A DNA stretch of 55,444 nucleotides, taken from NCBI GenBank assembly GCA_043801485.1, contig JAZDLY010000168.1, forward strand, positions 1 to 55,444. The letters are read 5' to 3'. The notes under the pieces were generated by a model. The model did no database searches and had not been told where the DNA came from. It was given only the letters and a program-made list of their open reading frames with translations. The position numbers and the translations under genes are program-made. The DNA is from Candidatus Omnitrophota bacterium. Lineage in GTDB: Bacteria; Omnitrophota; Gorgyraeia; Velamenicoccales; Velamenicoccaceae. Shown here piece by piece: positions 3,498 to 53,060 of this stretch; position 1 is the first letter of the stretch; the number at the start of each line of letters is the position of its first letter.

Positions 3498-3690
3498 CAC
3501 ACGAAACGAGCACCTTAATGTTTCGTTTTAGCGAATTGAGCACAATTTTACACTGAAGGTGTACCAGCGAATTGAACACCTTAATGTTTTAATTTAGTGA
3601 AATCCCGCTGATTTTTAGCGGGAATCCCGCGTTAGCGGGAGTCCTTGTGAGCTTTAGCGAACAAGGAAATATTTCAGGTGTTCATACATC
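3498..3690. repeat. Hairpin-module mosaic (modules A, B, B, C) after trpE
   Basis: AGCACCTTAATG words, AATCCCGC-TGATTTTTA-GCGGGA, AATCCCGC-GTTA-GCGGGA, GTCCTTGT-GAGCTTTAGCGAA-CAAGGA. The B-C part is nearly identical to 33365-33409. Confidence 0.75.
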
Positions 3691-3705
3691 AGAGAGGAGC
3701 AATAA

Positions 3706-3948
3706 ATGGCCGTTAAAATCAGAATGCGTAAAGTATCCGACACGGCGAAAAAAAGATACAATTTCCGGATTGTCGTGATTGAGGGAGGGCGGTCCCGCGA
3801 TGCCCGCGTGATCGAAGAGTTGGGTTATTATGACCCAGCCAAACAGCCAGCGGCGCTGAAGGTCAACAAAGAACGCCTGGAACATTGGCGCAAGCTTGGC
3901 GCGCAGGTTTCTTCGACGGTAAAGAGTCTTGTGAAAAAACTCAAATAG
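3706..3948 (+). CDS. rpsP: 30S ribosomal protein S16
   Basis: 80 aa, MAVKIRMRK...RIVV...GYYDP. GAGAGGAG SD upstream. Confidence 0.95.
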   Translation: MAVKIRMRKVSDTAKKRYNFRIVVIEGGRSRDARVIEELGYYDPAKQPAALKVNKERLEHWRKLGAQVSSTVKSLVKKLK

Positions 3949-3977
3949 ATATTTTTTAAAACGGGGAGGTCGCTTTT

Positions 3978-4256
3978 ATGAATCCAGCACAGCCGGGAAT
4001 GTCGAGCTATTTGTTTCCCATGGCGATCATTTTTTTGATTTTTTATGTGGTCCTGATCCGGCCACAGCAAAAACAGGAAAAAGACTTCAAAAAGATGGTG
4101 GCGGGGCTTAAAAAAAATGATGAGATTGTTACGGTCGGAGGTGTCCATGGCACCATCGTCAACGTCAAAGACAAGACGTTTGTGGTCCGCGTGGATGACA
4201 ACACGAGGTTTGAGATAGACAAGAGCGCGGTCGCGCGCATCGAAAAACAGGCTTAA
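3978..4256 (+). CDS. yajC: Preprotein translocase subunit YajC
   Basis: 92 aa with a single TM followed by RPQQKQ..GD.V.T.GG..G.I, and adjacent to secDF. Confidence 0.9.
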   Translation: MNPAQPGMSSYLFPMAIIFLIFYVVLIRPQQKQEKDFKKMVAGLKKNDEIVTVGGVHGTIVNVKDKTFVVRVDDNTRFEIDKSAVARIEKQA

Positions 4257-4269
4257 GGAGGAGTTTTTT

Positions 4270-12826: not shown

Positions 12827-14254
12827 ATGTACGAACCGGTCATAGGTCTGGAAGTCCACGTTCAGTTGAAAACGAAAACAAAAGCGTTTTGCGGCTGCGT
12901 CAATGAATTCGGCGCCAGAGAAAATACCAACATTTGTCCTGTCTGTTTGGGGTTGCCAGGTGCCTTGCCGGTGTTGAATGCCCAGGCCATCAAAAGTAGC
13001 GCCAAGGTGGCCCTGGCGTTGGGGTGCACGGTCCGAACGTTCACCAAATTCGACCGCAAAAATTACTTTTATCCGGATTTGCCGAAGAATTTTCAGATTT
13101 CCCAGTACGATATGCCTCTCTCAGAGCACGGTTTCCTGGATATTGAGACCCCGGCCGGTGTCAAGCAAATCCGCATCAAGCGCGTCCACCTGGAAGAAGA
13201 CGCCGGCAAATTGATCCACGATGAGAAGGCGCCTTTTAGCTATGTGGATTTTAATCGGGCCGGCACGCCGCTCTTGGAAATCGTCACAGAACCTGACCTG
13301 AACACGCCCCAAGAGGCGTACCTGTATCTGACGGATTTAAAATTGATCTTGCAGTATTTAGGGGTTTCGGATTGTGATATGGAAAAAGGGACTTTGCGCT
13401 GTGATGCCAATGTCTCTGTGCGAAAATCCGGGGACAAGACACTAGGGACAAAGGCTGAGCTCAAAAATATGAATTCCTTCAAAGCCGTCAAGGGTGCTTT
13501 GGAATATGAAATTTTACGGCAGACCAGGGAGTTGGAAGGCGGAGGCCGCATTGTCCAGGAAACTCGGCTGTGGAATGAAAAGAAAGCCCAGACATTTTCG
13601 ATGCGCAGCAAGGAAGAGGCCCATGATTATCGATATTTTCCGGAACCGGACCTGCCTCCGTTTGTGTTTAGCCAAGACGAACTGAACCGGATGCGGCAGG
13701 ATTTACCAGAGCTGCCGAAGCAGCGATGCAAACGCCTGGTGGAGACTTTTGGATTGACCGCTGCGGAGGCTGCGACGACCACTAGTGATAAAGACCTGGC
13801 TGATTTTTTTGAAGCCTGCTGCAAGATTTCATCCGATTTTCGAAAGATCGTTCATTGGCTTATCGGGCCTGTCCTTTTTGAGATGAATTCAAGAAATGCG
13901 GATGTGTTGTCTCTGGGGTTGACGCCTGCGCAACTGGTACGGCTGGTTTCTCTTGTTGAAGACAATACGATCAGTCAACTGACAGCCAAGGATGTTTTGA
14001 GCCAGATGTTGGATGAGCATAAAGATCCGGATCTCCTCATTCAGGAAAAGAACCTGGCGCAGGTTTCGGATGCAGGGGCCTTGAACTCCGTCATTGAAGA
14101 GGTCGTACGGAACAACAAAAAGTCTGTTGACGATTATCTGGCGGGAAAAGAAAATGCGCTTATGTTTTTGGTTGGTCAGGTCATGAAGATGTCAAAAGGC
14201 AAAGCAAACCCCAAAATGGCCAAAGACCTTTTGGCAGAAAGGTTAAAGTTATGA
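12827..14254 (+). CDS. gatB: Asp/Glu-tRNA amidotransferase subunit B
   Basis: MYEPVIGLEVHVQL, CPVCLGLPGALP, YRYFPEPDLPP, C-terminal YqeY-like domain. Confidence 0.96.
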   Translation: MYEPVIGLEVHVQLKTKTKAFCGCVNEFGARENTNICPVCLGLPGALPVLNAQAIKSSAKVALALGCTVRTFTKFDRKNYFYPDLPKNFQISQYDMPLSEHGFLDIETPAGVKQIRIKRVHLEEDAGKLIHDEKAPFSYVDFNRAGTPLLEIVTEPDLNTPQEAYLYLTDLKLILQYLGVSDCDMEKGTLRCDANVSVRKSGDKTLGTKAELKNMNSFKAVKGALEYEILRQTRELEGGGRIVQETRLWNEKKAQTFSMRSKEEAHDYRYFPEPDLPPFVFSQDELNRMRQDLPELPKQRCKRLVETFGLTAAEAATTTSDKDLADFFEACCKISSDFRKIVHWLIGPVLFEMNSRNADVLSLGLTPAQLVRLVSLVEDNTISQLTAKDVLSQMLDEHKDPDLLIQEKNLAQVSDAGALNSVIEEVVRNNKKSVDDYLAGKENALMFLVGQVMKMSKGKANPKMAKDLLAERLKL

Positions 14255-15567
14255 GAAAGATCTTTTTTCGAATATTTGGCCTTGCGGTGATTTCAGGTTC
14301 TCTTTTTCTTTTGGCGAGCTGGGCGCTTCCGGCGATTGAGCGCACAAAAAAGAACGAAACCTTCAAGGAATTGGAAATTTTCGCAGATGCCCTGACATTG
14401 ATCCAGACCGAGTCTCCGGAGGAGAAGACGCCAAAGGAGCTGATTTACGGCGCGCTTCGCGGCATGATCGATTCTCTGGATGCGCACAGCCAGTTCATGA
14501 CCCCCGAAGAATACCAGGAGCTGCAGGTGGATACTTCCGGTCAATACGGCGGCATCGGCATTGAAATTACCACGAAAGACAATCTGGTGACGATCATGAC
14601 CGTCATGGAAGAAACGCCGGCCTGGACCGCGGGGTTGGCCAGCTATGACCGCATCGTGAAAATAGACGAGACGGTCCTCAAGAATATCACGCTCAATGAG
14701 GCGGCCAAGATGCTCCGTGGAAAACCTGGGACACAACTGCGCATTGTTGTGTGGCGCGAGAAAGAAGGTCGACTTTTGTCTTTTGACCTCAAGAGGGCCA
14801 TGATTCAGCTCAAAGATATCAAGGAAGCCAAAATATTAGAAAACCATATTGCGTATGTTAAATTATCGGAATTCCGGGAAGAGACGCCCAAAGAACTGGA
14901 CCGGGTTCTTGAGGATCTTAAAAAAGAGGGGATGGACAGCCTGATCCTTGATTTGCGCAATAATCCCGGCGGGCTGCTGGACAAGGCCATTGCTGTTACC
15001 GAGCGGTTTCTCCCCAAGGGAGTGCTGATTGTGTCCATCAAAGGAAAGAATGCGAAACAGGACACTGAATTTAAATCAACTTTTTCAAGGTCTCTTGTTC
15101 TGCCTCCGATGGTTGTCCTCGTCAATGGCGGGAGTGCCTCGGGCAGCGAAATCTTGGCCGGAGCCCTTCAGGATCACAAGCGCGCCATTGTGATGGGAGC
15201 TTCTTCCTTTGGAAAAGGTTCGGTCCAGACGGTCTTTCCCTTAAGGGACGGATCGGCGCTAAAATTGACAACAAGCCGTTATCTGACACCGTTGGGACGC
15301 ATCATTCAGGATGCAGGCATTGAGCCGGATGTCGTCGTTGCCGATGTTCTCCAGGCCCAAGGACAAGGGCAGGCCGAAAAGGTCGATGTCGAAGCAATTT
15401 TTGAGTCGGTCGGTGATAAAAAACCTCAAGACGCATCAGACCAACAGCAACTTTTGAAAAAACGCTATGCGACGGATCCGCAGCTGGCACGCGCGGTCGA
15501 TTTGCTCAAAAGCATCAAAATTTACACATCAATAATGTCGGGGCATGAAGAAAAAGCAAGAATATAA
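14251..15567 (+). CDS. ctpA: Carboxyl-terminal processing protease (peptidase S41)
   Basis: Signal anchor, PDZ region, LILDLRNNPGG, NGGSASGSEI, FGKGSVQ. Confidence 0.9.
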   Translation: MRKIFFRIFGLAVISGSLFLLASWALPAIERTKKNETFKELEIFADALTLIQTESPEEKTPKELIYGALRGMIDSLDAHSQFMTPEEYQELQVDTSGQYGGIGIEITTKDNLVTIMTVMEETPAWTAGLASYDRIVKIDETVLKNITLNEAAKMLRGKPGTQLRIVVWREKEGRLLSFDLKRAMIQLKDIKEAKILENHIAYVKLSEFREETPKELDRVLEDLKKEGMDSLILDLRNNPGGLLDKAIAVTERFLPKGVLIVSIKGKNAKQDTEFKSTFSRSLVLPPMVVLVNGGSASGSEILAGALQDHKRAIVMGASSFGKGSVQTVFPLRDGSALKLTTSRYLTPLGRIIQDAGIEPDVVVADVLQAQGQGQAEKVDVEAIFESVGDKKPQDASDQQQLLKKRYATDPQLARAVDLLKSIKIYTSIMSGHEEKARI

Positions 15568-16423
15568 AAATACGCTGATTGCGTTTCTCTGTGTTGTTGT
15601 TTTGGTGCAGTCTTTGGTGTTGCTCCACGTGTTGCGCCCCAGACAAGCGGTGCGCAGGAAAAAAAAGATTGCTGTCGCTGCGCTGCATCCCGAGCTAAAA
15701 ACCCCTGTTGCCCCTGTCCTTTTACCCAGGCCGGCCCCGCCTGCTAAACCACAAAAGATTTTGGGCAAGATCGCCCTGGTGATTGATGACTGGGGTTATA
15801 ATCTCAGGAATCAAGATTTTATCACGGACAATGATTTTCATGTGACGGTGTCAGTCTTGCCGTTTAAGGCGTATTCCACACATGTGGCCCAGTTGGCCTT
15901 TCACAAAAACAAGGACGTCGTCATCCACATGCCCATGGAGCCCCTTTCCAAGGAAGAGTATGGCCTTGAAGAGAAGACATTGTTGACTACGATGGACGCA
16001 AAAACCGTCCTGCGGTTCCTTGACGAAGCCATGGCCGTTGTGCCTTATGCCAAAGGCATGAGCAATCATATGGGGTCAAAAGCCACGCAAGATCGACACC
16101 TCATGAAGATTGTTTTTGATTATCTTAAAGGCCATCGTTTATTTTTTCTGGATAGTCTTGTGACGTCACGGTCCCTGGCAAGGGCCCTGGCAAAAACATC
16201 CGGGATTCTGTGTTTTCAAAGAGATGTTTTTATCGACAACGAAAGCGATCCTGCCTATATCCGCAATCAATTGAAGCAACTGGCCGATGTTGCCAGGCGC
16301 AAAGGCGTTGCGGTAGGCTTGGGGCATGACCGGCCGTCCACCATCGCCGTCCTGACGGAAATGATTCCCCGTCTTCAGGAAGAAGGTTATCAGTTTATCA
16401 ATCTTTCCGAAATCGACAGCTGA
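15545..16423 (+). CDS. Divergent polysaccharide deacetylase family protein (YibQ-like)
   Basis: IALVIDDWGYN, HMPMEP, MSNHMGS, FLDSLVTS, GLGHDRP. A ctp-yibQ neighbourhood is also seen in E. coli. Confidence 0.8.
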   Translation: MKKKQEYKNTLIAFLCVVVLVQSLVLLHVLRPRQAVRRKKKIAVAALHPELKTPVAPVLLPRPAPPAKPQKILGKIALVIDDWGYNLRNQDFITDNDFHVTVSVLPFKAYSTHVAQLAFHKNKDVVIHMPMEPLSKEEYGLEEKTLLTTMDAKTVLRFLDEAMAVVPYAKGMSNHMGSKATQDRHLMKIVFDYLKGHRLFFLDSLVTSRSLARALAKTSGILCFQRDVFIDNESDPAYIRNQLKQLADVARRKGVAVGLGHDRPSTIAVLTEMIPRLQEEGYQFINLSEIDS

Positions 16424-25493: not shown

Positions 25494-25566
25494 TTTATCC
25501 ACCTTCGCTGGAAAACTTTTCTCCAGCTACGGTGGACTTCACTAATTATTTACATTAAGGTGTTTC

Positions 25567-26397: not shown

Positions 26398-26474
26398 GGC
26401 GGAGTAGCTCAGCCTGATAGAGCACGCGGCTCATACCCGCTTTGTCGGTGGTTTAAATCCACTCTCCGCCACCA
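26398..26474 (+). tRNA. tRNA with CAT anticodon (elongator Met, or Ile2 if lysidinylated), CCA encoded
   Basis: Hand-folded cloverleaf: GGCGGAG/CTCCGCC acceptor, GCTC/GAGC D stem, CTCATAC anticodon loop, GGTGG-TTTAAAT-CCACT T arm, ACCA end. G1-C72 is paired, so it is not an initiator. Confidence 0.92.
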
Positions 26475-26629
26475 GTACTTTGCGCTCTGTGTCATAACTC
26501 TGTTTATGGATTGTGCTTGGTTGGTGTCCTTGCTCGCTTGCGCTCGCAGGGACTTCGCTAAATGCACCTTCGGTGCTCATTAAGGTGCTTGGTTTTCAGC
26601 CGGAGGCTGATCCGCCTTCGGCGGAAAAT
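26475..26629. repeat. Hairpin-module mosaic in reverse orientation (C' then A')
   Basis: TCCTTGCTCGCTTGCGCTCGCAGGGA and TTCGCTAAATGCACC-TTCG-GTGCTCATTAAGGTGCTTG are reverse complements of modules C and A seen elsewhere. Followed by TCCGCC-TTCG-GCGGA. Confidence 0.7.
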
Positions 26630-26645
26630 CCACTCTCCGCCACCA
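26630..26645 (+). repeat. Echo 1 of the tRNA(CAT) 3' end (CCACTCTCCGCCACCA)
   Basis: 16/16 identical to 26459-26474. With the preceding AAAT, 20 nt are identical. Confidence 0.9.
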
Positions 26646-26694
26646 TCTCTTAGAAGTCAGTGGCGTGCTATCAGGGCAGCCCTCCGAAGGAGGG

Positions 26695-26710
26695 CCACTC
26701 TCCGCCACCA
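26695..26710 (+). repeat. Echo 2 of the tRNA(CAT) 3' end
   Basis: 16/16 identical. Preceded by the CCCTCC-GAA-GGAGGG hairpin. Confidence 0.9.
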
Positions 26711-26805
26711 TTCTTCTCCGCCGTGCTGCTTTCGCGCACGGCTACGAAGCAATAGGCGAACAAGGTGCTACGAAGCCAAAGACGCAAGTGCTTTGGCGAA
26801 GTAGA

Positions 26806-26821
26806 CCACTCTCCGCCACCA
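26806..26821 (+). repeat. Echo 3 of the tRNA(CAT) 3' end
   Basis: 16/16 identical. Preceded by the GCCAAAG-ACGCAAGT-GCTTTGGC hairpin and followed 20 nt later by the ferredoxin start. Confidence 0.9.
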
Positions 26822-26841
26822 ATATTTTAAAAGGAGGAACA

Positions 26842-27091: not shown

Positions 27092-27121
27092 TTACAAATG
27101 TGAACGCATCGATGATATAAT
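27092..27121 (+). promoter_or_regulatory. Putative sigma70-type promoter (TTACAA-18-TGaTATAAT) 8 nt upstream of the pilZ ATG
   Basis: Extended -10 TGATATAAT at 27113-27121, no SD before ATG 27130. This implies a leaderless or near-leaderless mRNA. Confidence 0.4.
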
Positions 27122-27129
27122 ACGTCATT

Positions 27130-27516
27130 ATGAGAGAGAGTAACAATCACCCAAAGAACGAACAAAGGCAAAACGTCCGCGTCCCGGTCTACGTGGATTT
27201 TTACTACCTGATTGCCCAGCCGCCGGAGATCCGCATTCGGTTGGGCCAGGAGGAGAAGAAGGGCTCGATGGTGAATATCAGCAGCGGCGGCATTGGTTTT
27301 GTCAGCGATGTTGAGCTACCGTCGTCGACTGAGGTGGATATCAAGTTTTGTCTGGTCTTGAAAGATATCGAAAGTCCTTCCCTTTCTGTCACGGGCCAGG
27401 TCAAGCACTGCCGGTTCCTGCCTGAACTCAAAACATATCGCATTGGGATCGCCTTTAACAAAATCAACGAAAAAGAACGCGGTATCATTTCTGAGTTCGT
27501 CAAAAACTTTCTTTAA
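27130..27516 (+). CDS. PilZ domain protein (c-di-GMP receptor)
   Basis: RQNVR ... NISSGGIGF, matching the RxxxR / (D/N)xSxxG PilZ signature. Confidence 0.85.
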   Translation: MRESNNHPKNEQRQNVRVPVYVDFYYLIAQPPEIRIRLGQEEKKGSMVNISSGGIGFVSDVELPSSTEVDIKFCLVLKDIESPSLSVTGQVKHCRFLPELKTYRIGIAFNKINEKERGIISEFVKNFL

Positions 27517-29011: not shown

Positions 29012-29039
29012 TTGCTTTTCAAGGCGGTTTCGTTATAAT
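29012..29039 (+). promoter_or_regulatory. Putative promoter TTGCTT-16-TATAAT 9 nt upstream of the ftsH ATG
   Basis: Consensus -10 at 29034-29039, no SD between it and ATG 29049. Confidence 0.45.
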
Positions 29040-29048
29040 AATAGCGCT

Positions 29049-30920
29049 ATGAAAAAAATTCGTAACAATCGCTTGAAACCAACGTCTCCCCAGGGCGCCA
29101 AACGGCCCAATTCTCCATTTTTTATATGGATTATCTTTTTTATGGGCATGTTTTATCTCATCGGGATCTTCCAGAACAGCACGGTCTCCCGCAAAGAACT
29201 GACCTATACCGAATTTTACAGGGTTCTCAAAGACAGCCCGTCCAAATTGCGATCTGTCGCGATGATCGAAGACCTGCTGCAGGGTGAGTTTGCGAACGGC
29301 GATCGATTCTTTGTGAACATCCCCGCAGACGACAAAGACCTGTTGGCTTTGCTGAGGACCAACGCCCCTGATTTTGAAGTCAAGCCCTCTAAGACCATGT
29401 GGACTAATCTTTTGTTTTCTCTGGGGCCGGTTATTTTGTTTATTGGTTTTTTGTGGTACTTCAGTTATCGCGGAGCAGAGATGGGGAATCGCGTTTGGTC
29501 GTTTGGTAAAGTCAAGACGCGGTTGGGCTCAGATTCTAAAGAGAAAATGACTTTTAATGATGTGGCCGGTGTTGATGAAGCCAAAGAGGAGCTTCAGGAG
29601 GTCATCGAATTTTTGAAAGATCCGAAAAAATTTCAGCGCTTGGGAGGCAAGATTCCAAAAGGGCTCCTTTTGGTTGGGCCCCCGGGGTGCGGCAAGACGT
29701 TGATTGCCAAGGCCGTCGCCGGCGAGGCCAGCGTTCCTTTTTTGAATATCAGCGGTTCGGATTTTGTTGAGATGTTTGTGGGTGTCGGCGCTTCACGGGT
29801 GCGTGATTTATTTGAGCAGGCAAAGAAAGCCGCCAAGACCCTCGGCCGGGGTGCGATCATTTTTATCGACGAAATCGATGCAGTGGGCCGCTTGAGATTT
29901 TCCGGGATCGGCGGAGGGCACGATGAACGCGAACAGACGCTCAACCAATTGCTGGTGGAGATGGATGGTTTTGACCCCAACGAGGGGATTATTTTGATTG
30001 CGGCCACCAACAGGCCGGACACGTTGGATCCCGCACTTTTAAGGCCGGGCCGTTTTGACCGTCACGTCGTTATTGACCGGCCGGACATCAAGGGGCGCGA
30101 GGCCATTTTAAAAGTACACACCAAGAAGATTAAGTTGGCTGGAGAGGTCAGTCTTGAGTCCATTGCCCGACAGACGCCGGGTTTTTCAGGAGCGGATCTT
30201 GCCAATCTGTGCAACGAAGCCGCGTTGCTTTCAGCGCGTTACGATAAAGAAGCGGTGGGACAGAAGGAAATGGAGATAGCGCTCGAACGCGTTGTCGCCG
30301 GGCCTGAGCGAAAGAGCCGTGTCATCAGTGCGAAAGAAAAAGAAATTGTGTCTTTCCACGAAGCCGACCATGCCTTGATCGCGCTCCTGGTGCCGGAGGT
30401 GGATCCGTTGCATAAAGTTTCGATTATTCCCCGTGGCGTGGCCGCTTTGGGATACACACTTCAGTTACCGCTTCAGGATCGTTACATCATGATGAAGACC
30501 GAGCTTTTGGGCCGTATCGCGGTTCTGTTGGCGGGCCGGGCATCCGAAGAGATGAATTTCAACGACATCACCACGGGTTCGGAAAACGACATTGAGGTGG
30601 CGACCCAGATGGCCCGTCGGATGGTTTGTGAGTTTGGCATGTCCGAAAAGATCGGTTATTTGACACTGGGGCGCAGACAGGGTTTGATTTTTCTTGGCAA
30701 GAATCTGACAGAAGAGCGCAATTATAGCGAACAGACAGCCAAGTTGATCGATGAGGAAATCAAGAATATCATCGATCAATGCTTCGACAGAGCTAAAAAA
30801 CTCCTCATTGAAAATAAAGAAAAGCTTCTTTTGTTGGCGTCGACCTTGCGGGAGAGAGAGGTTTTGGACGGAGAAGAGGTCAAGAAGCTTTTGGGTTTTG
30901 ATTCCAGTGCACCAGCATGA
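29049..30920 (+). CDS. ftsH: ATP-dependent zinc metalloprotease FtsH
   Basis: [16 protein letters not shown] region, HEADHA zinc motif, two N-terminal TMs. Confidence 0.97.
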
Positions 30921-32118: not shown

Positions 32119-32916
32119 ATGGTTTGGGAAAAAATCGTTAATTTCTTCGCAGTTTATTGGATGATCTTAAAGCCTGCCATCGAGATTTCGATCTTGTGGT
32201 TTGTCTTTTTCAGGATCATGATCTTTTTTGAAGGCACGCGTGCCGGCCAGGTTTGGAAAGGGATCTTGATTTTGGTTATTACTTTTTTTCTGGCCCAAAA
32301 ACTAGGCCTCAATACCCTGGATTGGATTTTGACCAAGCTGTTCGCAATCTCTGTCGTTGCGGCGATCGTCATCTTTCAGCCGGAGTTGAGATTCGGTCTG
32401 GCGCGTTTGGGCCAACCGCATCTTTTCAGCACCGTGCTGAAGGCCGAAGAGATCGATGAATTGATCAAACAACTGACTCAGGCTCTCCTGGGTTTGTCGC
32501 AGAAGAAAGTCGGGGCGCTGATTGCCTTGGAACGCGAGGACCGCCTCAAGAGTTATATCGACAGCGGTGTGGTGATGGAGTCTAAGGTGAGCCCTGAACT
32601 TTTGGAGACGATCTTCACGCCGACATCGCCCCTGCACGACGGAGGCGTTGTGATTCAGGGAAATCGCATCGCCGCGGCCAGCTGTCTTTTTCCTTTGACG
32701 CAGAACCCTTATTTGAGCCATGGTCTGGGAACCCGCCACCGGGCGGCCATCGGATTATGCGAAGAATCTGATGCGATTGTGTTGATTGTGTCCGAAGAGA
32801 CCGGGCACATCTCTTTGGCGGTCCGCGGGCGTCTTGCTCAGGCACTGAGCCGCGAAGAATTGATGCAGAATCTTAAAGAACAATTGGTCGTTTCCAAAAA
32901 CATATCGCCGTCATGA
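32119..32916 (+). CDS. cdaA: Diadenylate cyclase CdaA
   Basis: 3 TM plus a DAC domain with LHDGGVVI and GTRHRAA..SEETG motifs. Confidence 0.93.
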   Translation: MVWEKIVNFFAVYWMILKPAIEISILWFVFFRIMIFFEGTRAGQVWKGILILVITFFLAQKLGLNTLDWILTKLFAISVVAAIVIFQPELRFGLARLGQPHLFSTVLKAEEIDELIKQLTQALLGLSQKKVGALIALEREDRLKSYIDSGVVMESKVSPELLETIFTPTSPLHDGGVVIQGNRIAAASCLFPLTQNPYLSHGLGTRHRAAIGLCEESDAIVLIVSEETGHISLAVRGRLAQALSREELMQNLKEQLVVSKNISPS

Positions 32917-33035
32917 AACTAGCCAAAATTTTTTCAGATTTAAAAAAGTGGTTCACCTATTATCCGCTCTATAAGCTCATCGCCCTGGTCCTTGCCATCG
33001 TGATCTATTTCTATGTGAACGCAGAGTTTAAATGA
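32913..33035 (+). pseudogene. 40-codon remnant resembling the N-terminal TM anchor of CdaR/YbbR
   Basis: ATGA overlap with the cdaA stop. MKLAKIFSDLKKWFTYYPLYKLIALVLAIVIYFYVNAEFK* resembles YbbR N-termini (..LKxxSLxLAxxLWxYV). The frame stops at the first base of the repeat block. Confidence 0.5.
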
Positions 33036-33125
33036 GGGCATAACTTATGGAGCGATAGCGTCCGCCACAAAGCTTCGGCGGATCCGCCAATTATTTTGGC
33101 GGAAACATAAGTTATAAGCCCGAAT
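33036..33125 (+). repeat. 90-nt compound-hairpin direct repeat, copy 1
   Basis: 89/90 identical to 33210-33299. ATAACTTATG...CATAAGTTAT encloses two TCCGCC-loop-GGCGGA hairpins. Confidence 0.9.
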
Positions 33126-33199
33126 TTATCCCGTGCCTGCGAGCAGTTTCCATCACTTGGATTTAGAAATCTGCGAAGCGTTCAGGCATCGGGATAACC
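33126..33199 (+). repeat. Module D copy 1 (nested hairpin, about 74 nt)
   Basis: TTATCCCGTGCCTGCGAGCAG..GAAATCTGCGAAGCGTTCAGGCATCGGGATAACC. Homologous to 46880-46955 and 52977-53047. Confidence 0.85.
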
Positions 33200-33209
33200 A
33201 CATTAACAT

Positions 33210-33299
33210 GGGCATAACTTATGGAGCGATAGCGTCCGCCACAAAGCTTCCGCGGATCCGCCAATTATTTTGGCGGAAACATAAGTTATAAGCCCGAAT
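33210..33299 (+). repeat. 90-nt compound-hairpin direct repeat, copy 2
   Basis: See copy 1. The single G/C difference lies in the first inner stem. Confidence 0.9.
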
Positions 33300-33441
33300 C
33301 AAGCACCTTGATATGCACCGTAGGTGCATTTAGCGAATTGAGCTCCTTAATGCCAATTCAGCGAAATCCCGCGTAAGCGGGAGTCCTTGTGAGCGTAAGC
33401 GAACAAGGATTATCCCGAAGCGTTCAGGCATCGGGATAACC
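33300..33441. repeat. Module mosaic A-B-C plus an internally deleted D
   Basis: CAAGCACCTTGATATGCACC-GTAG-GTGCATTTAGCGAA; AATCCCGC-GTAA-GCGGGA; GTCCTTGT-GAGCGTAAGCGAA-CAAGGA; TTATCCCG/AAGCGTTCAGGCATCGGGATAACC (33410-33441), which shares its 3' 26 nt with D copy 1. Confidence 0.85.
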
Positions 33442-33455
33442 ACCTTTATTCCTCC

Positions 33456-34169
33456 ATGCCTAAACTCGGCGTTAACATCGATCATATTGCGACTCTCCGG
33501 CAGCTGAGGCATTCCTTGACGCCGAGTCTGATCGAAGCTGCCCGGATTTGCGAAAACAGCGGTGCGGATTCCATTGTTGTTCATCTGCGTCAAGACAGGC
33601 GCCATATTCAAGACAAAGACGTTTGGTCTTTGAGACGTCGCGTCCAGAAAAAATTTAATTTAGAGATGTCGGCGGCGCCCGCCATTGTGCGGATCGCCTG
33701 TCGGGTCAAGCCTGACCAGGTTACCCTGGTGCCGGAGCGAAGGCAGGAATTGACGACCGAGGGCGGACTGGATGTTGTTAAGCACTGGCGCAGGATTGAA
33801 CGGGCCGCAAGAGAGCTCAAACGCCAAATGATTGATGTGAGTCTATTCATTGAGCCAGCACAAGAACAGATCAAGGCCGCTGCAAAATTGGGTATCGATA
33901 TGGTTGAGATCCATACGGGCGCCTATGCTAATAGCCTCAACCAGAGGAAGCGCGATAAGGAATTTTTAAAAATCAAAAACGCTGTAACTTATGCTCATGA
34001 GTTTGGTCTGACGGTGCATGCCGGTCATGGCCTGGATTACGGCAACACGCGGCCCGTTGCCCGTCTGGCCCATATGCAGGAATTAAACATTGGCTATTCC
34101 ATTGTTTGTCGTTCGGTATTCGTCGGGCTCGCTCAGGCGGTCCGTGAAATGAAAGCGCTCGTCAAATGA
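33456..34169 (+). CDS. pdxJ: Pyridoxine 5'-phosphate synthase
   Basis: LGVNIDHIATLR, HLR.DRRHI, EIHTG, HAGHGL. Confidence 0.95.
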   Translation: MPKLGVNIDHIATLRQLRHSLTPSLIEAARICENSGADSIVVHLRQDRRHIQDKDVWSLRRRVQKKFNLEMSAAPAIVRIACRVKPDQVTLVPERRQELTTEGGLDVVKHWRRIERAARELKRQMIDVSLFIEPAQEQIKAAAKLGIDMVEIHTGAYANSLNQRKRDKEFLKIKNAVTYAHEFGLTVHAGHGLDYGNTRPVARLAHMQELNIGYSIVCRSVFVGLAQAVREMKALVK

Positions 34170-35668: not shown

Positions 35669-35875
35669 TGCCGCAGCGAGCGTTAAGCGGCACGACAAGC
35701 GACCGGAGGAAGTCCCTTTGGGATGCCGTAGCGAGATGCGGCCCACCACCTTAATGTTTGCGGGAGTAGTTTTAATGACGGCACAAGTTATGGAACTGTT
35801 TGGTGACATAACTTGTTGCCGGAATTAATCCCGCCGGTTTCCAGGCGGGACAGTGGTCGTCGAGATGTTAGATTT
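35669..35875. repeat. Hairpin-module spacer between tRNA-Tyr and tRNA-Gly, including a tRNA-Gly 5' echo at 35757-35771
   Basis: GCCGC-AGCGAGCGTTAA-GCGGC, GCCG-TAGCGAGAT-GCGGC, CACCTTAATG word, CGGCACAAGTTATG-GAACTGTTTGGTGA-CATAACTTGTTGCCG, TCCCGCC-GGTTTCCAG-GCGGGA. TTTGCGGGAGTAGTT duplicates 35873-35887. Confidence 0.75.
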
Positions 35876-35949: not shown

Positions 35950-36069
35950 AAGAATGCAGCGTGTTTGAATTTTGAGCTCGGTTTGTTAATAGTGGGGTCT
36001 GGGTTCGTCCCGCCAAAAAACGGCGGGATTTCCCTTGATGCACCTTCGGTGCAGATTATGGTGCTCAAA

Positions 36070-36085
36070 TTCCCATCTCCCGCTT
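36070..36085 (+). repeat. Echo of the tRNA-Gly 3' end (ATTCCCATCTCCCGCT)
   Basis: 16/16 identical to 35931-35946. Preceded by the module-A-like TGCACC-TTCG-GTGCA. Confidence 0.85.
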
Positions 36086-36109
36086 GATTTCCCGTGAAAT
36101 TGCTTACGT

Positions 36110-36138
36110 TGACTTGCCCCATCGCGTGTGTTAGCATA
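36110..36138 (+). promoter_or_regulatory. Putative promoter TTGACT-17-TAGCAT 5 nt upstream of the kinase ATG
   Basis: Good -35 and spacing, no SD. ATG 36144 lies at the expected +1 region. Confidence 0.4.
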
Positions 36139-36143
36139 CGCCT

Positions 36144-39100
36144 ATGAAGCCGTTCCTGAATCTGGATTTCGTTTACACCTTCACCACAAGTGCCTTTTTC
36201 TTTCTAGGCACGTCCTGCCTGGTTTTCTATTTCCGCTCGAAGGGTAAAAAGACCTTGCCTTGGCTGTGGCTGGGTTGTTTCGGTTTTGCGTACAGCCTTA
36301 ATGAATTTCTGGACATGGTTGCCTTTTTGTTCGTGGATCCACGTTTTTTGCTGATTCAGCGATCTTTTGTTCTAGGGGTTTCTTTTTTGTGTCTTTTGGA
36401 GTTTGCGCGTCGGTCAAGCCTTGTCTTGGGGAGGATACGGGTCAGGCCGAGAATTTATATTCCGATCTTTTTGTTTCTGGGGTTGGGTTTTTGGAACCAG
36501 CAGTATGAAGATTTAAACATTTTTATCCGGTATATGCTTGGGTTTCCGGCGTCAATCTGGACGGCATGTGTTTTTTGGCTCTTTAGCCAGCGGAAAGAAA
36601 CGGCTGAATCAACTCAGGTCTATCGGGTGATTTCCATTTTATTTTTTGGATACGGTGTTGCGTCAGGACTGGTTGGGCCTCAGGCAGATTTTTGGCCAGC
36701 GACCTTTATTCATCAAAAGGCCTTTTTCGAATGGACCCACATGCCGATCCAGTTGGTCCGCGGGCTTTTGATTTCCGCGATCGCTTTTATGCTGATGCAC
36801 CAGTCGACTCGGATGTCCTGGCTTGTGGACTTGCCCCGGCATCGGCCGAAACCTATCAAATTCATCCTGTTCTCGTTTCTGGTCATGTATGTTGCTTTCT
36901 TATTCGCTGGTTCCTTGTTGGTCTCGACCGTCGATCGGCACGAACGAAGCCATTTGAAGAAACTTATTCTTTCGGATGCTCAGATTCTTGCGCATGCGCT
37001 GGGAGATCTGGATTTTGAAAGCTTCGCGGCTACGCGAGGGGAATCCGTCTACCGGACCTATCGCAATCTGCATAGCCGGATGCTGGTTTTGGCCGAACTG
37101 TCTCCTCTGATCAAATCCGTCTATCTTGTTTCGTTTGATAACGGACGTCCCAGCTTTGCCGTTGGAAGCCTGCCTCAGGTTTATCCGGGTGACGTTGTTC
37201 CTTCGTTTGGCGCCAGGATTCCGCAAAAGGCCCTCAAGGACGCACGCCATTCCAAAAAGCCGACGACGTTTGGTCCTTACGAAGACCGTCAAGGCCGCCA
37301 GGTTTTTTCGCTTTTCGTCCCCCTGGCTCACAAACACGATCAGGACGTGAGCCTCCTCGGCCTGGATCTCGGAGGGTTGAATTGGCAGCGGCAGCTTGCC
37401 AAATTCAGGTTCAATGCCCTTTTGATCGTATTGGTCTTTCTTGCGTTTTTGATCATCGGCTATTCGTTGCTTGCGACCTATGCTTTAAAAAATCAGGAGC
37501 TGGAAATCCAGAAGAAGAACTTAGATGAAGCATTGTTGCTTTTGAAAGAAGCCCGGGACGAGCTGGCCCGGTCCGAAGAGACGTTCCGCGGCATTCTCAA
37601 CAATTCCCCCAATGCCATTTTTGGATTTGACCGCGACCTGAAACTGATTTTCTGGAATAACGGCGCAGAGCGTCTTTACGGTTATTCCAAAAAAGAAGTG
37701 ATCAATGAACGCAATCCAGTCCTGAGTAAGAAAATGACCGATGTTTTCGGCAGCACAGAACTGGAGTTCGCTGTGGGAAAAATATTTACCGGCCAGGCGG
37801 TTCACAGCGAGATGCTCCACAACAAAAAACAGGGCAGCGTTGACGTGATTCTGACGATGTTTCCTGTCAAGGATCCCCAGGGGCACATTCTTTTCGGCAT
37901 GGGGTTGTCGCAGGACGTCTCCGACCAAAAGCGAACGGTGGAACTCTTGAAATATGAACGCCTGCTTTCCAAAAATATCATTGATTCCATCAGCGAAGAA
38001 TTGATGATTTTAGACTGCCAGACCAAAAAAATCCTGGACGTTAACAAAGAATTTTTAGAGAACTATCATTTGTCCAAAGAAGAGGTTGTCGGAAAAATCT
38101 GTCGTGATTTTACCCACCACGAAACGCCAACGTGCGATGCCTGTGGCATCAAGGATGTTCTGGATGGGCGCACGGTTTCCACGACGCACAAACACAAGAA
38201 TCATTCCACGGGACAGGAGATCTATTGCGACGTGACACTTTCTCCTCTGAGGGATGAGAACGGCAAAATCATCGGGGTGATTCATTTGGCCAAAGATGTC
38301 ACGGATCGCAAACACCTGGAGGATCAACTCAGACAACATTCCGAGAGCCTGGAGACCCAGGTGAAGGATCGGACAAAAGCATTGCAGGAGTCGGAATCCA
38401 AGTATCGTAGATTATTTGAAGCATCCCAAGACGGCATATTTATTCTGGATGCGTCCAGCGGTATCATCCTGGACGTCAATCCGTACTTTCTTAAACTACT
38501 GGGATTTGCGTGCGATGAGATCGTTGGGAAAAAAATATGGGAAATTTCTCCCCTGAAAGACGTCTTGTCCAACAAAATAAAATTCGAGGAATTGAAGAAC
38601 AAAAAATATGTCCGATATGATGACTTGTCCATTGAAACCAAAGAAGGCAAGTTGATTGAGGTGGAATTCGTCAGCAATGTGTATGATGTCAACACACATA
38701 CCGTTGTTCAGTGCAATATCCGTGATATTACCGAACAAAGGAAACTCGAAAAGATCAAAACGGAATTTGTCTCGATGGTGTCCCATGAATTGCGCACACC
38801 CCTGTCGGCCATCAAGGAGGGGGTTGAGATTGTTGCCGATGGCACTCAAGGAAAATTAAATAAATCCCAGCATGAATGTCTCGGGATTGCGCTTTCCAAC
38901 ATCAAACGTCTCAATCGCCTGATCGGCGATATCCTGGATATTTCTAAGATTCAGTCAAAACTATTAAAGATTGACACCAAAGCGTGTGATCTTTATGATG
39001 TGGTTGAACAGGTTTATAACCTGGTCAAAATCGAAATCGAAAAACGGGGCCTTGACTTTGCGATAGATCTGGAGAAGAACCTTCCGGTTGTCATTGGGGA

Positions 39101-43534: not shown

Positions 43535-44533
43535 ATGAGTAAGGAACTGAAAAAAGTTTCTGTTATTGGGGATGGGGGGTGGGGGACAACGTTGGCAATC
43601 TTGTTGTCCCGCAAAGGAATTGATGTTACGCTTTGGAGCGCATTTCCGGCTTATGCGCGAATGTTGTCAAAAAAGCGGACAAATCCGAATTTTTTAAAGG
43701 GAATACGTATTCCCAAGGATATCAAGATTACCGCAAGCTTGAGAGAGGCGCTTTCGGCTGATTTGCTTGTTTTGGCAGTTCCTTCACAGTACCTAAGAAG
43801 CGTGCTTTCTAAAGCCCGGTTGCTCTATGATCGCGCGGTTCCTGTTGTCAGCGTTGTCAAGGGAATCGAGGATAAGACATTGTTGAGGATGTCGGAAGTC
43901 ATCAGGGATGTCTGGCGGCCAAAGCATGCCGCTGTTTTGTCCGGACCGACGATTGCCATGGAAGTAGTCTGTGGCATTCCCACTACGGCTGTTGTTGCCG
44001 CACACGATCAGAGTTTGATGCTGTCGCTTCAGGATTTGTTCATGTCGCCAACGTTTCGAATTTATACCAATAAGGACACAATCGGCGTTGAGCTCGGCGG
44101 AAGCCTGAAGAACATCATTGCCATTGCCTGTGGTATTTCCGATGGCCTTGGCTTCGGAACCAACACCAAAGCCGCAATCTTGTCACGGGGCTCCGCGGAG
44201 ATGGCCAGGCTGGGGATGAAGATGGGGGCTAAAAGAGAGACTTTTTTTGGTTTGAGTGGTTTGGGCGATCTGGTGACAACCTGTTTTAATCCTTTAAGCC
44301 GCAATCATTCGGTGGGTGAAAAGATTGGTCGCGGAGTGTCTTGGGAACGCATCAGGCGCTCTATGAAAATGGTGGCCGAAGGCGTGCCGACCGCAAAGGC
44401 AGCCCATGGGCTCGGGAAAAAATATAAAGTCGATTTGCCGATCACCAATGAAATTTACCAAGTGCTTTTTAAGAATCGATCGCCGAGAGAAGCCGTGAAG
44501 TCTTTGATGGCCAGGGGTAAAAAGGCTGAATGA
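43535..44533 (+). CDS. gpsA: NAD(P)H-dependent glycerol-3-phosphate dehydrogenase
   Basis: VIGDGGWGTTLA, LKNIIAIACG, GLGDL..TC. Confidence 0.95.
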   Translation: MSKELKKVSVIGDGGWGTTLAILLSRKGIDVTLWSAFPAYARMLSKKRTNPNFLKGIRIPKDIKITASLREALSADLLVLAVPSQYLRSVLSKARLLYDRAVPVVSVVKGIEDKTLLRMSEVIRDVWRPKHAAVLSGPTIAMEVVCGIPTTAVVAAHDQSLMLSLQDLFMSPTFRIYTNKDTIGVELGGSLKNIIAIACGISDGLGFGTNTKAAILSRGSAEMARLGMKMGAKRETFFGLSGLGDLVTTCFNPLSRNHSVGEKIGRGVSWERIRRSMKMVAEGVPTAKAAHGLGKKYKVDLPITNEIYQVLFKNRSPREAVKSLMARGKKAE

Positions 44534-44647
44534 ATCAAGCACCTTTATGTGTGCCATAGGCACATTTAGCGCATTCCTTGCGAGTGGAGCGAGCAAGGAT
44601 CGCCACAGCCAAAAAGATTGCGGGGACAATAAGAGAGTTTCGATTTA
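44534..44647. repeat. Module mosaic A-C after gpsA
   Basis: ATCAAGCACCTTTATGTGTGCC-ATA-GGCACATTTAGCG, TCCTTGC-GAGTGGAGCGAG-CAAGGA. Confidence 0.75.
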
Positions 44648-44721
44648 CGGGGAGTGGCTCAGCTTGGTAGAGCACCTGAATGGGGTTCAGGGGGTCAGCG
44701 GTTCAAGTCCGCTCTCCCCGA
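44648..44721 (+). tRNA. tRNA-Pro (GGG)
   Basis: CGGGGAG/CTCCCCG acceptor, CCTGA-ATGGGGT-TCAGG anticodon arm, AGCGG-TTCAAGT-CCGCT T arm. Confidence 0.9.
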
Positions 44722-44775
44722 CTTTATTGAGCACGTGACTTACGGAACGAAGTGAACGTAAGTCACTGTGCGAAA
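44720..44775 (+). repeat. 56-nt perfect direct repeat, copy 1 (begins in the last 2 nt of tRNA-Pro; contains module E)
   Basis: GACTTTATTGAGCACGTGACTTACGGAACGAAGTGAACGTAAGTCACTGTGCGAAA, identical to 44880-44935. Confidence 0.92.
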
Positions 44776-44879
44776 TAAATCCTCGATATCTACCTCAATG
44801 AATTATCCGAGGTAAATATCGAGGATCAACTCGAACGAATAACTTAGCTGCTCGTTGTTTGCTAAGTTATGTTCTCGTT
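44776..44879. repeat. Module F and an E-like hairpin between the direct repeats
   Basis: ATCCTCGATATCTACCTC-loop-GAGGTAAATATCGAGGAT (44779-44826) and ATAACTTAGC-TGCTCGTTGTTT-GCTAAGTTAT. Confidence 0.8.
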
Positions 44880-44935
44880 GACTTTATTGAGCACGTGACT
44901 TACGGAACGAAGTGAACGTAAGTCACTGTGCGAAA
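44880..44935 (+). repeat. 56-nt perfect direct repeat, copy 2
   Basis: Identical to 44720-44775, with a 160-bp period. Confidence 0.92.
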
Positions 44936-45025
44936 CAAGCACCTTAATTTGTACCAAAGGTGCATTTAGCGAAGTCCTCGACATTTACTTCTATGTTATT
45001 TTGAGGTAAATGTCGAGGATAACTC
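44936..45025. repeat. Modules A and F before doxX
   Basis: CAAGCACCTTAATTTGTACC-AA-AGGTGCATTTAGCGAA, then TCCTCGACATTTACTTC-loop-GAGGTAAATGTCGAGGA (44975-45020). Confidence 0.8.
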
Positions 45026-46748: not shown

Positions 46749-46960
46749 GTGAGCGCATAACTTACGGAACGATAGTAAACGTAAGTTATATGTGCGAACT
46801 TATCCTTGACGCTTTCCCCTAAATATTTCAAGGTAGGCGTCGAGGATAAATGAATCGCGACTTCCGGGGCGAGCAAGGATTATCCCGTTCCCTGCAAGCA
46901 GATTTCCGGTTAATGTGTTCTAAATCTGCGCAGCGATTAGGGCATCGGGACTTCCACCAT
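46749..46960. repeat. Module mosaic E-F-C'-D after hom
   Basis: ATAACTTACG-GAACGATAGTAAA-CGTAAGTTAT (46757-46789), ATCCTTGACGC..GGCGTCGAGGAT (46802-46847), GAGCAAGGAT, and D copy 2 (46880-46955). Confidence 0.85.
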
Positions 46961-52909: not shown

Positions 52910-52932
52910 AGGCCATATTTGGCCTAATTTTA
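52910..52932 (+). terminator. Weak candidate intrinsic terminator after lysC
   Basis: AGGCC-ATATTT-GGCCT followed by AATTTTA. Only a 5-bp stem. Confidence 0.3.
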
Positions 52933-53047
52933 GAACCTTAATGTTCAAAGTTTAGCGAAATCCCGCGCAAGCGGGAAATCCCGATACCTGCAAGCAGATT
53001 TCAATCGCAAAGTCTCGGAAATCTGCGAAGCGTTAAGGTATCGGGAC
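52933..53047. repeat. Module mosaic A'-B-D after lysC
   Basis: GAACCTTAATGTTCAAAGTTTAGCGAA, AATCCCGC-GCAA-GCGGGA, and D copy 3 (52977-53047) with perfect stems TCCCGATACCT/AGGTATCGGGA and GCAGATTTC/GAAATCTGC. Confidence 0.85.
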
Positions 53048-53060
53048 AAGAGAGGATACC

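Follow-up and report, generated by a model that had tools for sequence, protein, structure and literature searches.

An apparently undescribed family of modular palindromic repeats in Omnitrophota and its likely lineage-specific build-up upstream of pdxJ

Omnitrophota are uncultured, small-celled bacteria with compact genomes. In a 55,444-nt contig of one of them (Candidatus Omnitrophota bacterium, JAZDLY010000168.1; the whole stretch is called the window below), the 420-nt spacer upstream of pdxJ (33036-33455) consists of nested perfect hairpins. This spacer is probably, though by no means certainly, a lineage-specific build-up of small non-autonomous palindromic repeats of a clade-native Omnitrophota family, similar in kind to repetitive extragenic palindromes (REPs) with their bacterial interspersed mosaic elements (BIMEs), or to the small transposable elements with inverted repeats known as MITEs. 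The family, which has end sequences of its own, is apparently undescribed. Its units lie at unrelated loci, are present or absent at orthologous spacers, and are nested in the loops of other units; at gene boundaries they preserve stop codons, the Shine-Dalgarno (SD)-like AAGGTG and start codons. The elements are of two kinds: boxes with TGAGC...GCGAA ends, and GC-rich perfect hairpins (modules B, D and F) beside the GCGAA end. In module A the box is AT-rich inside, in module E it encloses a long covarying hairpin, and in the module C loop it has almost no interior.

The array, described here on the + strand, opens with module E* (33033-33125), which has an AATGAG flank, an outer stem GGGC/GCCC, an inner stem ATAACTTATG/CATAAGTTAT and a 3′ end CGAA; inside its loop lie two hairpins TCCGCC...GGCGGA (33061-33082 and 33083-33103). 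Full-length module D follows (33126-33209; nhmmer match 33127-33203, E = 1e-21), a long hairpin with the conserved internal-loop words CTGCGAGC / CTGCGAAGCG and the tail CCACATTAACAT. The second E* copy (33210-33299) is a local duplication of the first with a 174-nt period, and the two 90-nt direct repeats (33036-33125 and 33210-33299) are identical at 89 of 90 positions, with one base different. Module A (33295-33337; profile match 33301-33337, minus strand) is the family's conserved box in antisense to the gene direction; it is made of CGAATCAAGCACCTTGAT, the hairpin ATGCACC-GTA-GGTGCAT, which splits the two box halves, and TTAGCGAA. A second A unit without a hairpin (33338-33365, TTGAGCTCCTTAATGCCAATTCAGCGAA) leads to module B (33365-33382), the hairpin TCCCGC-GTAA-GCGGGA immediately after GCGAAA, and then to module C (33383-33409; match 33380-33409), a hairpin TCCTTGT/ACAAGGA whose loop GAGCGTAAGCGA is a collapsed A box that keeps both ends TGAGC...GCGAA. 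The last element is a module D lacking 42 internal nt (33410-33445; profile match 33416-33445), which has the tail CCACCTT and stops about 10 nt upstream of the pdxJ ATG at 33456; a 31-nt piece of module D is found twice (33174-33204 and 33416-33446). The E*-D pair is duplicated, and in its second copy E* is parted from D by precisely the block A-A-B-C (33300-33409).

An earlier note on this DNA had described the nested palindromes, the 89/90 repeats, modules A to D, and both the full and the internally deleted D, and all of these hold in repeat analysis and in folding against shuffles. It had placed the repeats in a cdaA-pdxJ spacer, which is actually the spacer between a small open reading frame (ORF; 32913-33035) and pdxJ. 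Its cuts between modules A to F are not the natural limits of a unit, which are TGAGC...GCGAA plus the adjoining hairpin.

Folded as RNA, the spacer reaches -182.2 kcal/mol against -115.4 ± 6.4 for shuffles (z = -10.5), and as DNA -107.9 against -55.0 ± 4.1 (z = -13.0); no shuffle out of 100 attained such stability. With at most one mismatch allowed, the window has 12 occurrences of the ten-mer GCACCTTAAT where 2.2 are expected, and none of 100 shuffles reached 12. Ten of these occurrences are in spacers, one is within tRNA-Pro and one is in a short ORF-free stretch before the start at 25567. The conserved junction and loop words of the earlier note hold; only composite words are significant, TTTAGCGAA by itself hardly exceeding chance (25 matches against 17.3 expected).

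The stems covary strongly, without G.U intermediates. Paired stem substitutions, which the earlier note had reported from reading the sequence, withstand a statistical test: when 11 module E copies are aligned, 98.2% of the cells of the 10-bp inner stem are paired, and five of its ten pairs have changed on both sides (16 cells), giving a score that none of 500 shuffles reached. No pair of this stem shows a one-sided change, and slid controls fall to 24-42% paired. The 4-bp outer stem of module E takes forms that include GCAC/GTGC, GCCC/GGGC, GGAC/GTCC, GGCC/GGCC, GCGC/GCGC, CGGC/GCCG and GGGC/GCCC. Five copies of module D likewise differ by paired changes (TTTC/GAAA versus TCCC/GGGA; GTGCC/GGCAT versus GATACC/GGTATC), while the internal-loop words stay constant. 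Nearly all stems are perfect, with only two single-mismatch hairpins, which makes the asymmetry between G.U and A.C uninformative; a count of G.U versus A.C based on minimum free energy structures (253 versus 182) is confounded by tRNAs and GC skew. UUCG tetraloops were also discarded as an RNA signature, since the stems close one pair further in and leave TTC and GAA triloops. The stems that adjoin the box are particular to each genome: CAZNWL01 has CCCGGC three times and JAHKAJ01 has CCCGAT three times, and the two differ in this even at accD, where their sites are orthologous. Such concerted evolution is known from REPs.

The same units are found well beyond this contig. We scanned 185,579 species genomes with the pattern AGCACCTTRAT-N5-20-TTTAGCGAA and obtained 41 loci, about 22 of which, with the exact composite signature of 20 nt, are in at least 14 Omnitrophota metagenome-assembled genomes (MAGs), some labelled Planctomycetia; the other matches are scattered singletons, as chance predicts. 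A metagenome scan added about 35 units on further contigs. Loci from other genomes are denoted by L-numbers. Profiles of module E match L018 (twice), L084, L040, L077, L044, L003 and L047, those of module D match L075 and L044, and those of module C match L080 (twice), L025 and L084. One copy of module A lies on CP070684, a complete Omnitrophota chromosome (L002), whereas the 20-kb locus of Ca. Velamenicoccus archaeovorus (CP019384) had no copy.

Read on the strand opposite to that of the description above, the basic unit is a variable perfect hairpin followed by TTCGCTAAAT-N5-7-ATTAAGGTGCT-CAA, with the box core TTCGCTAAAT-N5-7-ATTAAGGTGCTCA. The ends TTCGC...GCTCA (TGAGC...GCGAA on the other strand) are common to modules A and E and to the C loop, and are not inverted repeats of each other. 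In most other genomes single units stand in the opposite orientation to most of those in the window, immediately upstream of start codons; a minority arrangement like that of the window also occurs in L001, L076 and L078. The genes on the two sides of the unit are co-directional in 16-17 of 20 genome loci. Among 33 non-redundant units, the distance from GGTGCT to the next start is 0-5 nt in 13, 6-20 nt in six (often with an extra AAGGAGG) and 21-60 nt in five, and no ORF follows the unit in the remaining nine. Judged by its letters and position, AGGTG should be able to pair with the canonical anti-SD at normal spacing. The stop codon of the upstream gene often falls within the hairpin loop (aGTAg or aGTAa) or within the box. 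Seven of the eight module E copies outside the window end in ...CTCA right before an SD and a start codon, and the eighth belongs to L018, where it forms the second half of an inverted doublet; a shorter E-A′-B array is present in L077. The genes 3′ of the units are unrelated to one another (glmS and accD twice each, murD, birA, leuC, metG, fabZ, argG, gmhB and a response regulator).

The focal array can be set against the same locus in related genomes. The best homologues of the window's PdxJ all come from Candidatus Omnitrophota, the nearest being 68% identical. The gene order tilS-ftsH-folP-cdaA-small ORF-pdxJ-acpS-nnrD-tRNAs-PAS kinase-response regulators-thyA is kept in L042, L044, L046, L119 and Ca. 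Velamenicoccus archaeovorus (CP019384), and synteny with relatives is unbroken on either side of the array. Between cdaA and pdxJ lies a conserved ORF of 40 aa (32913-33035, + strand) whose start overlaps the cdaA stop (ATGA) and which takes its own TGA stop (33033-33035) from AATGAG, the flank of the first repeat unit. Orthologous genes of 40-41 aa are called in L044, L046, L118 and L119; in relatives the ORF stops with TAA or TAG. From this ORF to pdxJ the window has 420 nt, against 9 nt in L044, about 10 nt in L042, 52 nt in L119, 69 nt in L118 and 77 nt in L046, and the modules are absent from all five of these gaps. Since the orthologous gap measures about 9-77 nt in relatives with identical gene order, the focal array is a lineage-specific accretion. 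The gap between the response regulator and thyA is 129 nt in L044, where it holds D and E, versus 10 nt in the window and in L046; ThyA of the window and of L044 are 88% identical. A profile of module A finds seven matches in the window at E < 0.1 and no match at E < 0.1 in 94 kb of syntenic relatives.

Neither sigma-70-like promoters nor intrinsic terminators are predicted within 33036-33455. Given this, and the gap of about 9 nt in relatives, the array must on these predictions be transcribed together with cdaA-pdxJ. The 40-aa ORF is hydrophobic (MKLAKIFSDLKKWFTYYPLYKLIALVLAIVIYFYVNAEFK) and has no Pfam match on record. As a separate observation, pdxJ of the window has no SD and is directly preceded by an anti-SD-like CCACCTTTATTCCTCC (33440-33458); pdxJ of the relatives is also without an SD, but starts about 9 nt past the stop of the small ORF (coupling).

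Comparisons between copies reveal insertion of whole units. A filled and an empty paralogue in L084 have about 40 nt of left flank and the right-hand box in common, and inside the hairpin apex of the filled copy sits an entire 55-nt unit, composed of a C-type hairpin and a degenerate box; no target-site duplication was seen in this pair beyond an ambiguous 3-nt TGC at the junction. The A-C-tail composite at 3572-3692 of the window is about 91% identical (counted from the alignment) to that of L025, which occupies a non-orthologous site, while PdxJ of the two hosts is only 65% identical. Relative to the L025 composite, the window has two B hairpins (39 nt) inserted just after ...GTGAA. No target duplication was found at this B-B insertion, nor at the insertion of A-C between E* and D in the focal array.

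We propose that the units spread as DNA, an enzyme encoded elsewhere acting in trans on their folded single strands. The best guess for this mobiliser would be one of HUH/RAYT type, because the ends are asymmetric, hairpins are present and no target duplication is obvious. New copies would land preferentially beside or inside existing units, either after ...CGAA or in hairpin loops, and mosaics such as the focal array would therefore result. The focal array itself would be transcribed within the cdaA-pdxJ-acpS operon and would act at most as an RNA stabiliser or insulator, being neither a promoter nor a terminator. Hairpins may be tolerated in tight operons because a closed hairpin keeps both flanks close. 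Strong rules of orientation and spacing beyond the window, together with a highly conserved box, suggest that the copies which persist do not, at the least, conflict with operon expression and perhaps serve it.

A number of results weigh against this account of mobile DNA. A non-coding composite conserved at about 91% between distant hosts suggests a selected role in expression, and the fixed spacing of units to the ATG outside the window likewise favours such a role over selfish spread. Of 26 loci from elsewhere that exceed 3 kb, 23 have the unit on the strand that is coding and GC-skew-positive, a bias that is reversed in the window. The family also lacks the GTAG or CGTC tag of REPs (GTAG occurs only inside some loops) and has TGAGC and GCGAA in its place; CGAA, considered as a REP-like tag, is not enriched, a crude count giving 6 of 74 hairpins against a 5% background. 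No Y1/HUH transposase was detected by tblastn in the window, in keeping with the earlier note's statement that it holds no RAYT, or in 0.8 Mb of loci from other genomes; this is a weak negative, obtained with IS200, IS608 and RAYT sequences as queries. A weak IS608-like match next to a unit in L002 turned out to be a radical-SAM protein. No filled and empty pair from strains of one species was found, and the census of the source genome covers 55 kb.

The strongest competitor to spread as DNA, which we regard as rather unlikely while giving it real weight, is that the units are primarily cis-acting RNA elements of operon mRNAs, a portable intercistronic cassette. Its hairpin would carry or follow the upstream stop and protect the RNA end, its AU-rich UUCGCUAAAU... 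would be a processing or ribosome-standby site, AUUAAGGUGCUCA would give an SD-like AGGUG 6 nt before the AUG, and the window arrays would be duplicated or degenerate derivatives. The arrangement outside the window agrees with this, namely the co-directional placement (16-17 of 20 genome loci, 23 of 26 longer ones), the start codon 0-5 nt past GGTGCT in 13 of 33 units and 6-20 nt past it in six more, the upstream stops within the hairpin loop, and the ...CTCA end before SD and start in seven of eight E copies. So do the conservation of the single-stranded box beside hairpins that are free to vary, and the fact that pdxJ expression requires transcription of the array. GNRA loops (12 versus 4) and a + strand about 7% more stable than the - strand point the same way, but this strand asymmetry is confounded by real tRNAs and GC skew. 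About 20 of the 24 recognisable module copies in the window are, however, antisense to transcription, opposite to the other genomes; perfect palindromes without G.U pairs are atypical of long-lived RNA structures; the downstream genes have no function in common; and nested insertions of whole units, with presence or absence at orthologous sites, demand a process at the DNA level anyway. It is quite improbable that the composites are classical MITEs, that is, deletion derivatives of a DDE-type insertion sequence (IS) with A-box terminal inverted repeats (TIRs; GAGCACCTTAAT / ATTAAGGTGCTC) moved by the IS transposase. The A-C-tail composite does have imperfect inverted A-box-like ends, both in L025 and in the window (TTGAACACCTTAATG ... 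CATTTCAGGTGTTCA, 3571-3688), the L018 doublet is about 230 bp long with inverted E units at both ends and an AT-rich centre, and the elements are intergenic and occur in either orientation. Most units nevertheless contain a single A box, TGAGC and GCGAA are not inverted repeats, no target-site duplication exceeds the ambiguous 3 nt, and the orientation bias relative to genes is strong; no transposase-sized ORF is enclosed by an inverted A-box pair in any sequence of the limited sample examined.

Less probable still is a derivation of the arrays from repeated integration and excision at tRNA sites with local duplication, in which the hairpins would stem from tRNA acceptor-stem junctions and no mobile family would exist. 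Repeated tRNA 3′ ends downstream of tRNA-Met (four copies), tRNA-Gly and tRNA-Pro would fit such scars, as would the partial tRNA copies with hairpins in relatives, the integrase adjoining tRNA-Gly in L042, and the B stems TCCCGC/GCGGGA and TCCGCC/GGCGGA, which equal the acceptor strands of tRNA-Gly and tRNA-Met. Yet most arrays, including the focal one, are distant from tRNA genes, identical units separate housekeeping genes in many genomes, and the B stems CCCGAT and CCCGGC of other genomes are unlike tRNA ends. Chance palindromes, or an assembly artefact confined to the contig, are refuted. The window is indeed a single metagenomic contig, and misassembly was one of the conditions that the earlier note named as refuting its family; it is excluded because the same modules occur in independent Omnitrophota genomes (at least 14 other assemblies) and on metagenome contigs, dozens of independent assemblies altogether. 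Synteny is intact on both sides, and the shuffles match neither the folding energies (z = -10.5 and -13) nor the word count (0 of 100).

Several simpler functions were considered and dropped. A regulon or riboswitch does not fit, given unrelated downstream genes, module D in both orientations to genes and no Rfam match; a sigma-70 promoter within the box fails for want of a -35/-10 fit, clear promoters being found elsewhere (for example TTGACT-17-TAGCAT before 36144); the hairpins have no U-tracts and are thus not intrinsic terminators; and an orientation tied to replication is inseparable from the coding strand. In the whole window Rfam recovers five tRNAs at the gathering threshold and the same five only at E <= 0.5, so that the earlier note's remark that the modules match no named family holds in the permissive mode as well; in the focal spacer the one match, FtrB, is at chance level (24.6 bits against a gathering score of 66). 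Plasmid and phage collections showed no similarity to the array, and a literature search returned nothing on interspersed repeats in Omnitrophota.

REPs are imperfect, GC-rich palindromes of 20-40 bp in extragenic spacers, and RAYT genes, of the Y1 HUH kind, typically have REPs at their flanks. REPs are defined by an unpaired GTAG or CGTC tetranucleotide at one end of the palindrome, and are mostly located after coding regions; GTAG REPs are further defined by RAYT genes, and CGTC REPs have no known transposase (PMC3733652). The Omnitrophota units share with REPs and BIMEs short GC-rich palindromes that are dense in extragenic, co-transcribed spacers, mostly after coding regions, and that form mosaics with other conserved motifs (A-A-B-C-D, E-F-E-A-F, E-F-C-D, A-B-D). 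As in REPIN-RAYT systems, stems are uniform within a genome and different between genomes, and inverted doublets occur (L018). Unlike REPs, the family has a conserved single-stranded box of about 30 nt (TTCGCTAAAT-N-ATTAAGGTGCTCA) beside the hairpin, abutting start codons, and is nearly unchanged between hosts whose PdxJ proteins are 65% identical. The resemblance to REP/BIME mosaics, which the earlier note had pointed out for the architecture, is thus functional and architectural only; we do not class the family as REP, because neither the defining tag nor a RAYT was found.

Y1 classes are present in neighbouring phyla such as Planctomycetes (PMC6006769). The single-strand elements of the IS200/IS605 group, and PATEs, which are miniature forms of them, resemble the family in their asymmetric ends, the absence of TIRs from the basic unit, hairpins near the ends and the lack of a clear target duplication. 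IS200/IS605 elements insert 3′ of a specific tetra- or pentanucleotide; in the Omnitrophota units several junctions follow ...CGAA(T), without statistical enrichment, and insertion also goes into single-stranded loops. The Omnitrophota units differ in being only about 50-90 nt long and modular, and neither a Y1 transposase nor TnpB was detected in the sequence examined. BOX elements of S. pneumoniae (boxA-boxB(n)-boxC) are likewise highly structured, co-transcribed intergenic modules of variable number and order (PMC3049150). The likeness is one of architecture only; BOX belongs to another phylum and keeps a fixed A...C frame, in contrast to the free order and common nesting seen here. The L018 doublet and the A-C-tail composite are the forms that resemble the Correia (Neisseria) and ERIC MITEs, which are about 100-230 bp long with inverted ends, intergenic and transcribed, and may supply expression signals; the Omnitrophota units show no TA-type target duplication, mostly have no TIRs, and no parental IS was found in the loci examined. 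MIRUs, reportedly described by Supply et al. in 1997, are said to be intercistronic in operons and gene-oriented, with stop and start signals that overlap those of the flanking genes. That overlap is matched by the canonical single unit of other Omnitrophota, but MIRUs are tandem direct repeats with mini-ORFs, without palindromes or nesting.

What sets the family apart is its modular grammar, with asymmetric conserved ends, interchangeable hairpins and nesting, together with a non-coding composite that has changed far less than the host proteins, and the placement of the unit exactly between a stop and a start codon in most genomes. If a mobilising enzyme were identified, this would be a new REP-type system outside Proteobacteria and would bear on the spread of REP families that have no dedicated transposase, such as CGTC REPs. 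Were the box to act as a signal for expression, it would represent an element of translation or processing specific to this lineage. On a practical level, such arrays will break short-read assemblies and mislead gene callers in Omnitrophota MAGs, and a family model would aid annotation. A bolder idea, which we offer as unlikely speculation, is that [hairpin]-UUCGCUAAAU-N5-7-AUUAAGGUGCUCA-(AUG) is a hitherto unrecognised, clade-wide, self-propagating "operon linker", a single block uniting stop codon, protective hairpin and ribosome-binding site. It may spread by a loop-targeting mechanism, either independent of a transposase or with a novel enzyme, which could also place hairpins within copies of tRNA genes, in the D-, anticodon- and T-loops; the window arrays may then be a runaway antisense form of an element that is elsewhere domesticated for expression.

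Six other spacers of the window contain modules of the focal spacer, and hairpins of the B, C and TCCGCC types are spread over nine of its spacers and are present in other genomes. The recurrences listed in the earlier note were correct, their limits here being 3498-3690, 44531-45025, 46749-46960 and 52928-53049, as was its reverse-complement copy (here 26527-26597), a list to which further copies at 25494-25566 and 35995-36070 have to be added. All long ORFs of the window are on the + strand, and the genes flanking the arrays are ordinary housekeeping genes (trpE/rpsP, cdaA/pdxJ, gpsA/tRNA-Pro/doxX, hom/thrC and lysC/cimA). On the + strand, the trpE-rpsP spacer (3498-3690) contains A, A′, A, B, B and C with an inverted A-box-like tail. 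Directly after gpsA, whose TGA stop overlaps the first bases of the unit, lie A and C (44531-44599), and between tRNA-Pro and doxX there is an array E-F-(unique hairpin)-E-A-F (44727-45024) that includes a 66-nt duplication carrying the last bases of tRNA-Pro. The hom-thrC spacer (46749-46959) has E, starting 1 nt after the TAA stop, then F, a C-like unit and D, and the lysC-cimA spacer (52928-53056) has A, B and D at 52928-53049, stopping 11 nt before the ATG. The single unit at 25494-25566 (+ strand), a hairpin followed by ATTAAGGTG 4 nt before the GTG start of a pterin-binding gene, is in sense orientation, the reverse of most window copies. In reverse orientation on the - strand are C plus an A with an internal hairpin, downstream of tRNA-Met (26527-26597), and a B-type hairpin TCCCGCC...GGCGGGA plus an A-like box with the hairpin TGCACC-TTC-GGTGCA (35995-36070), after which the tRNA-Gly 3′ end is repeated. 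The TGAGC end abuts the upstream stop at three sites (33033, TGA in AATGAG; 44531, TGA overlapping; 46746, TAA-g-TGAGCGC), and the window arrays end 8-17 nt upstream of the next start codon.

The most structured spacer of the window belongs to none of these: the 280 nt at 1721-2000 form nested hairpins of -135.6 kcal/mol (-0.48 per nt), with GCGAAGC-type loops and a 13-bp perfect stem at 1928-1956, and have no match to modules A-F. Canonical promoters of the window abut start codons (36104-36146, 27100-27132 and 29020-29051), so the mRNAs would be leaderless or nearly so. TTGACT-17-TAGCAT, also found in L044, ends 6 nt before the ATG at 36144, and at 27130 and 29049 the ATG has TATAAT about 9 nt upstream, with similar sequences before ftsH in L042 and L046.

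Fragments of tRNA genes accompany some of the hairpins. The sequence CCACTCTCCGCCACCA (the acceptor 3′ strand of tRNA-Met plus CCA) occurs four times within 380 nt (26455-26838), the 3′ end of tRNA-Gly is found again 120 nt downstream of its gene (36068-36083), and the last bases of tRNA-Pro are inside the 66-nt duplication (44873-44886); in L046, too, the tRNA-Met 3′ end appears a second time, about 290 nt downstream. These repeated 3′ ends resemble att-site scars, yet no more than 65-290 nt of hairpins separate them. The window (35765-35860) has, immediately upstream of the true tRNA-Gly, a copy of the first 19 nt of that tRNA (GCGGGAGTAGTT|CAGTGGT) with the D-loop interrupted by two GC hairpins, which is closed by (T)ACTCCCGC in L042 and L046. 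The same arrangement, with different hairpin loops, is seen at 13530-13640 and 14550-14660 of L042 and at about 12500-12640 of L046, that is, in three lineages, and could be a structured RNA or an old pseudo-tRNA. L042 further has three tandem tRNA-Met copies (3819-4352), two of them interrupted by hairpins after the anticodon and in the T-loop, and a tRNA-Gly copy with two TCCCGCC hairpins in the anticodon loop (13628-13740); its phage-type integrase (14795-15844) adjoins an intact tRNA-Gly. Hairpins appear to land in loops of tRNA-like DNA. The commonest stems (3603-3640, 33367-33382, 52961-52976, 26611-26625 and 33061-33103) match tRNA acceptor strands in 3′-then-5′ order, TCCCGC/GCGGGA resembling tRNA-Gly (GCGGGAG/CTCCCGC) and TCCGCC/GGCGGA resembling tRNA-Met (GGCGGAG/CTCCGCC). 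These are the two partially duplicated tRNAs, and the match is either a coincidence or a hint at the origin of the hairpins.

Two further kinds of repeat were seen in other genomes. L084 carries a different cassette in at least five copies (1340-2550 and 4090-4160), a hairpin ATCCCAAGC...GCTTGGGAT followed by TTTTTGGTG-N8-GGTATAAT and, about 8-25 nt later, a start codon; it resembles a terminator-plus-promoter module ahead of small genes. Two spacers of L042 (2946-3020 and 4833-4906) consist of degenerate short tandem motifs (ccggttaaccggttaac / ctggtcggctggtcgg), are mutually inverted, and flank the tRNA-Met cluster and one gene.

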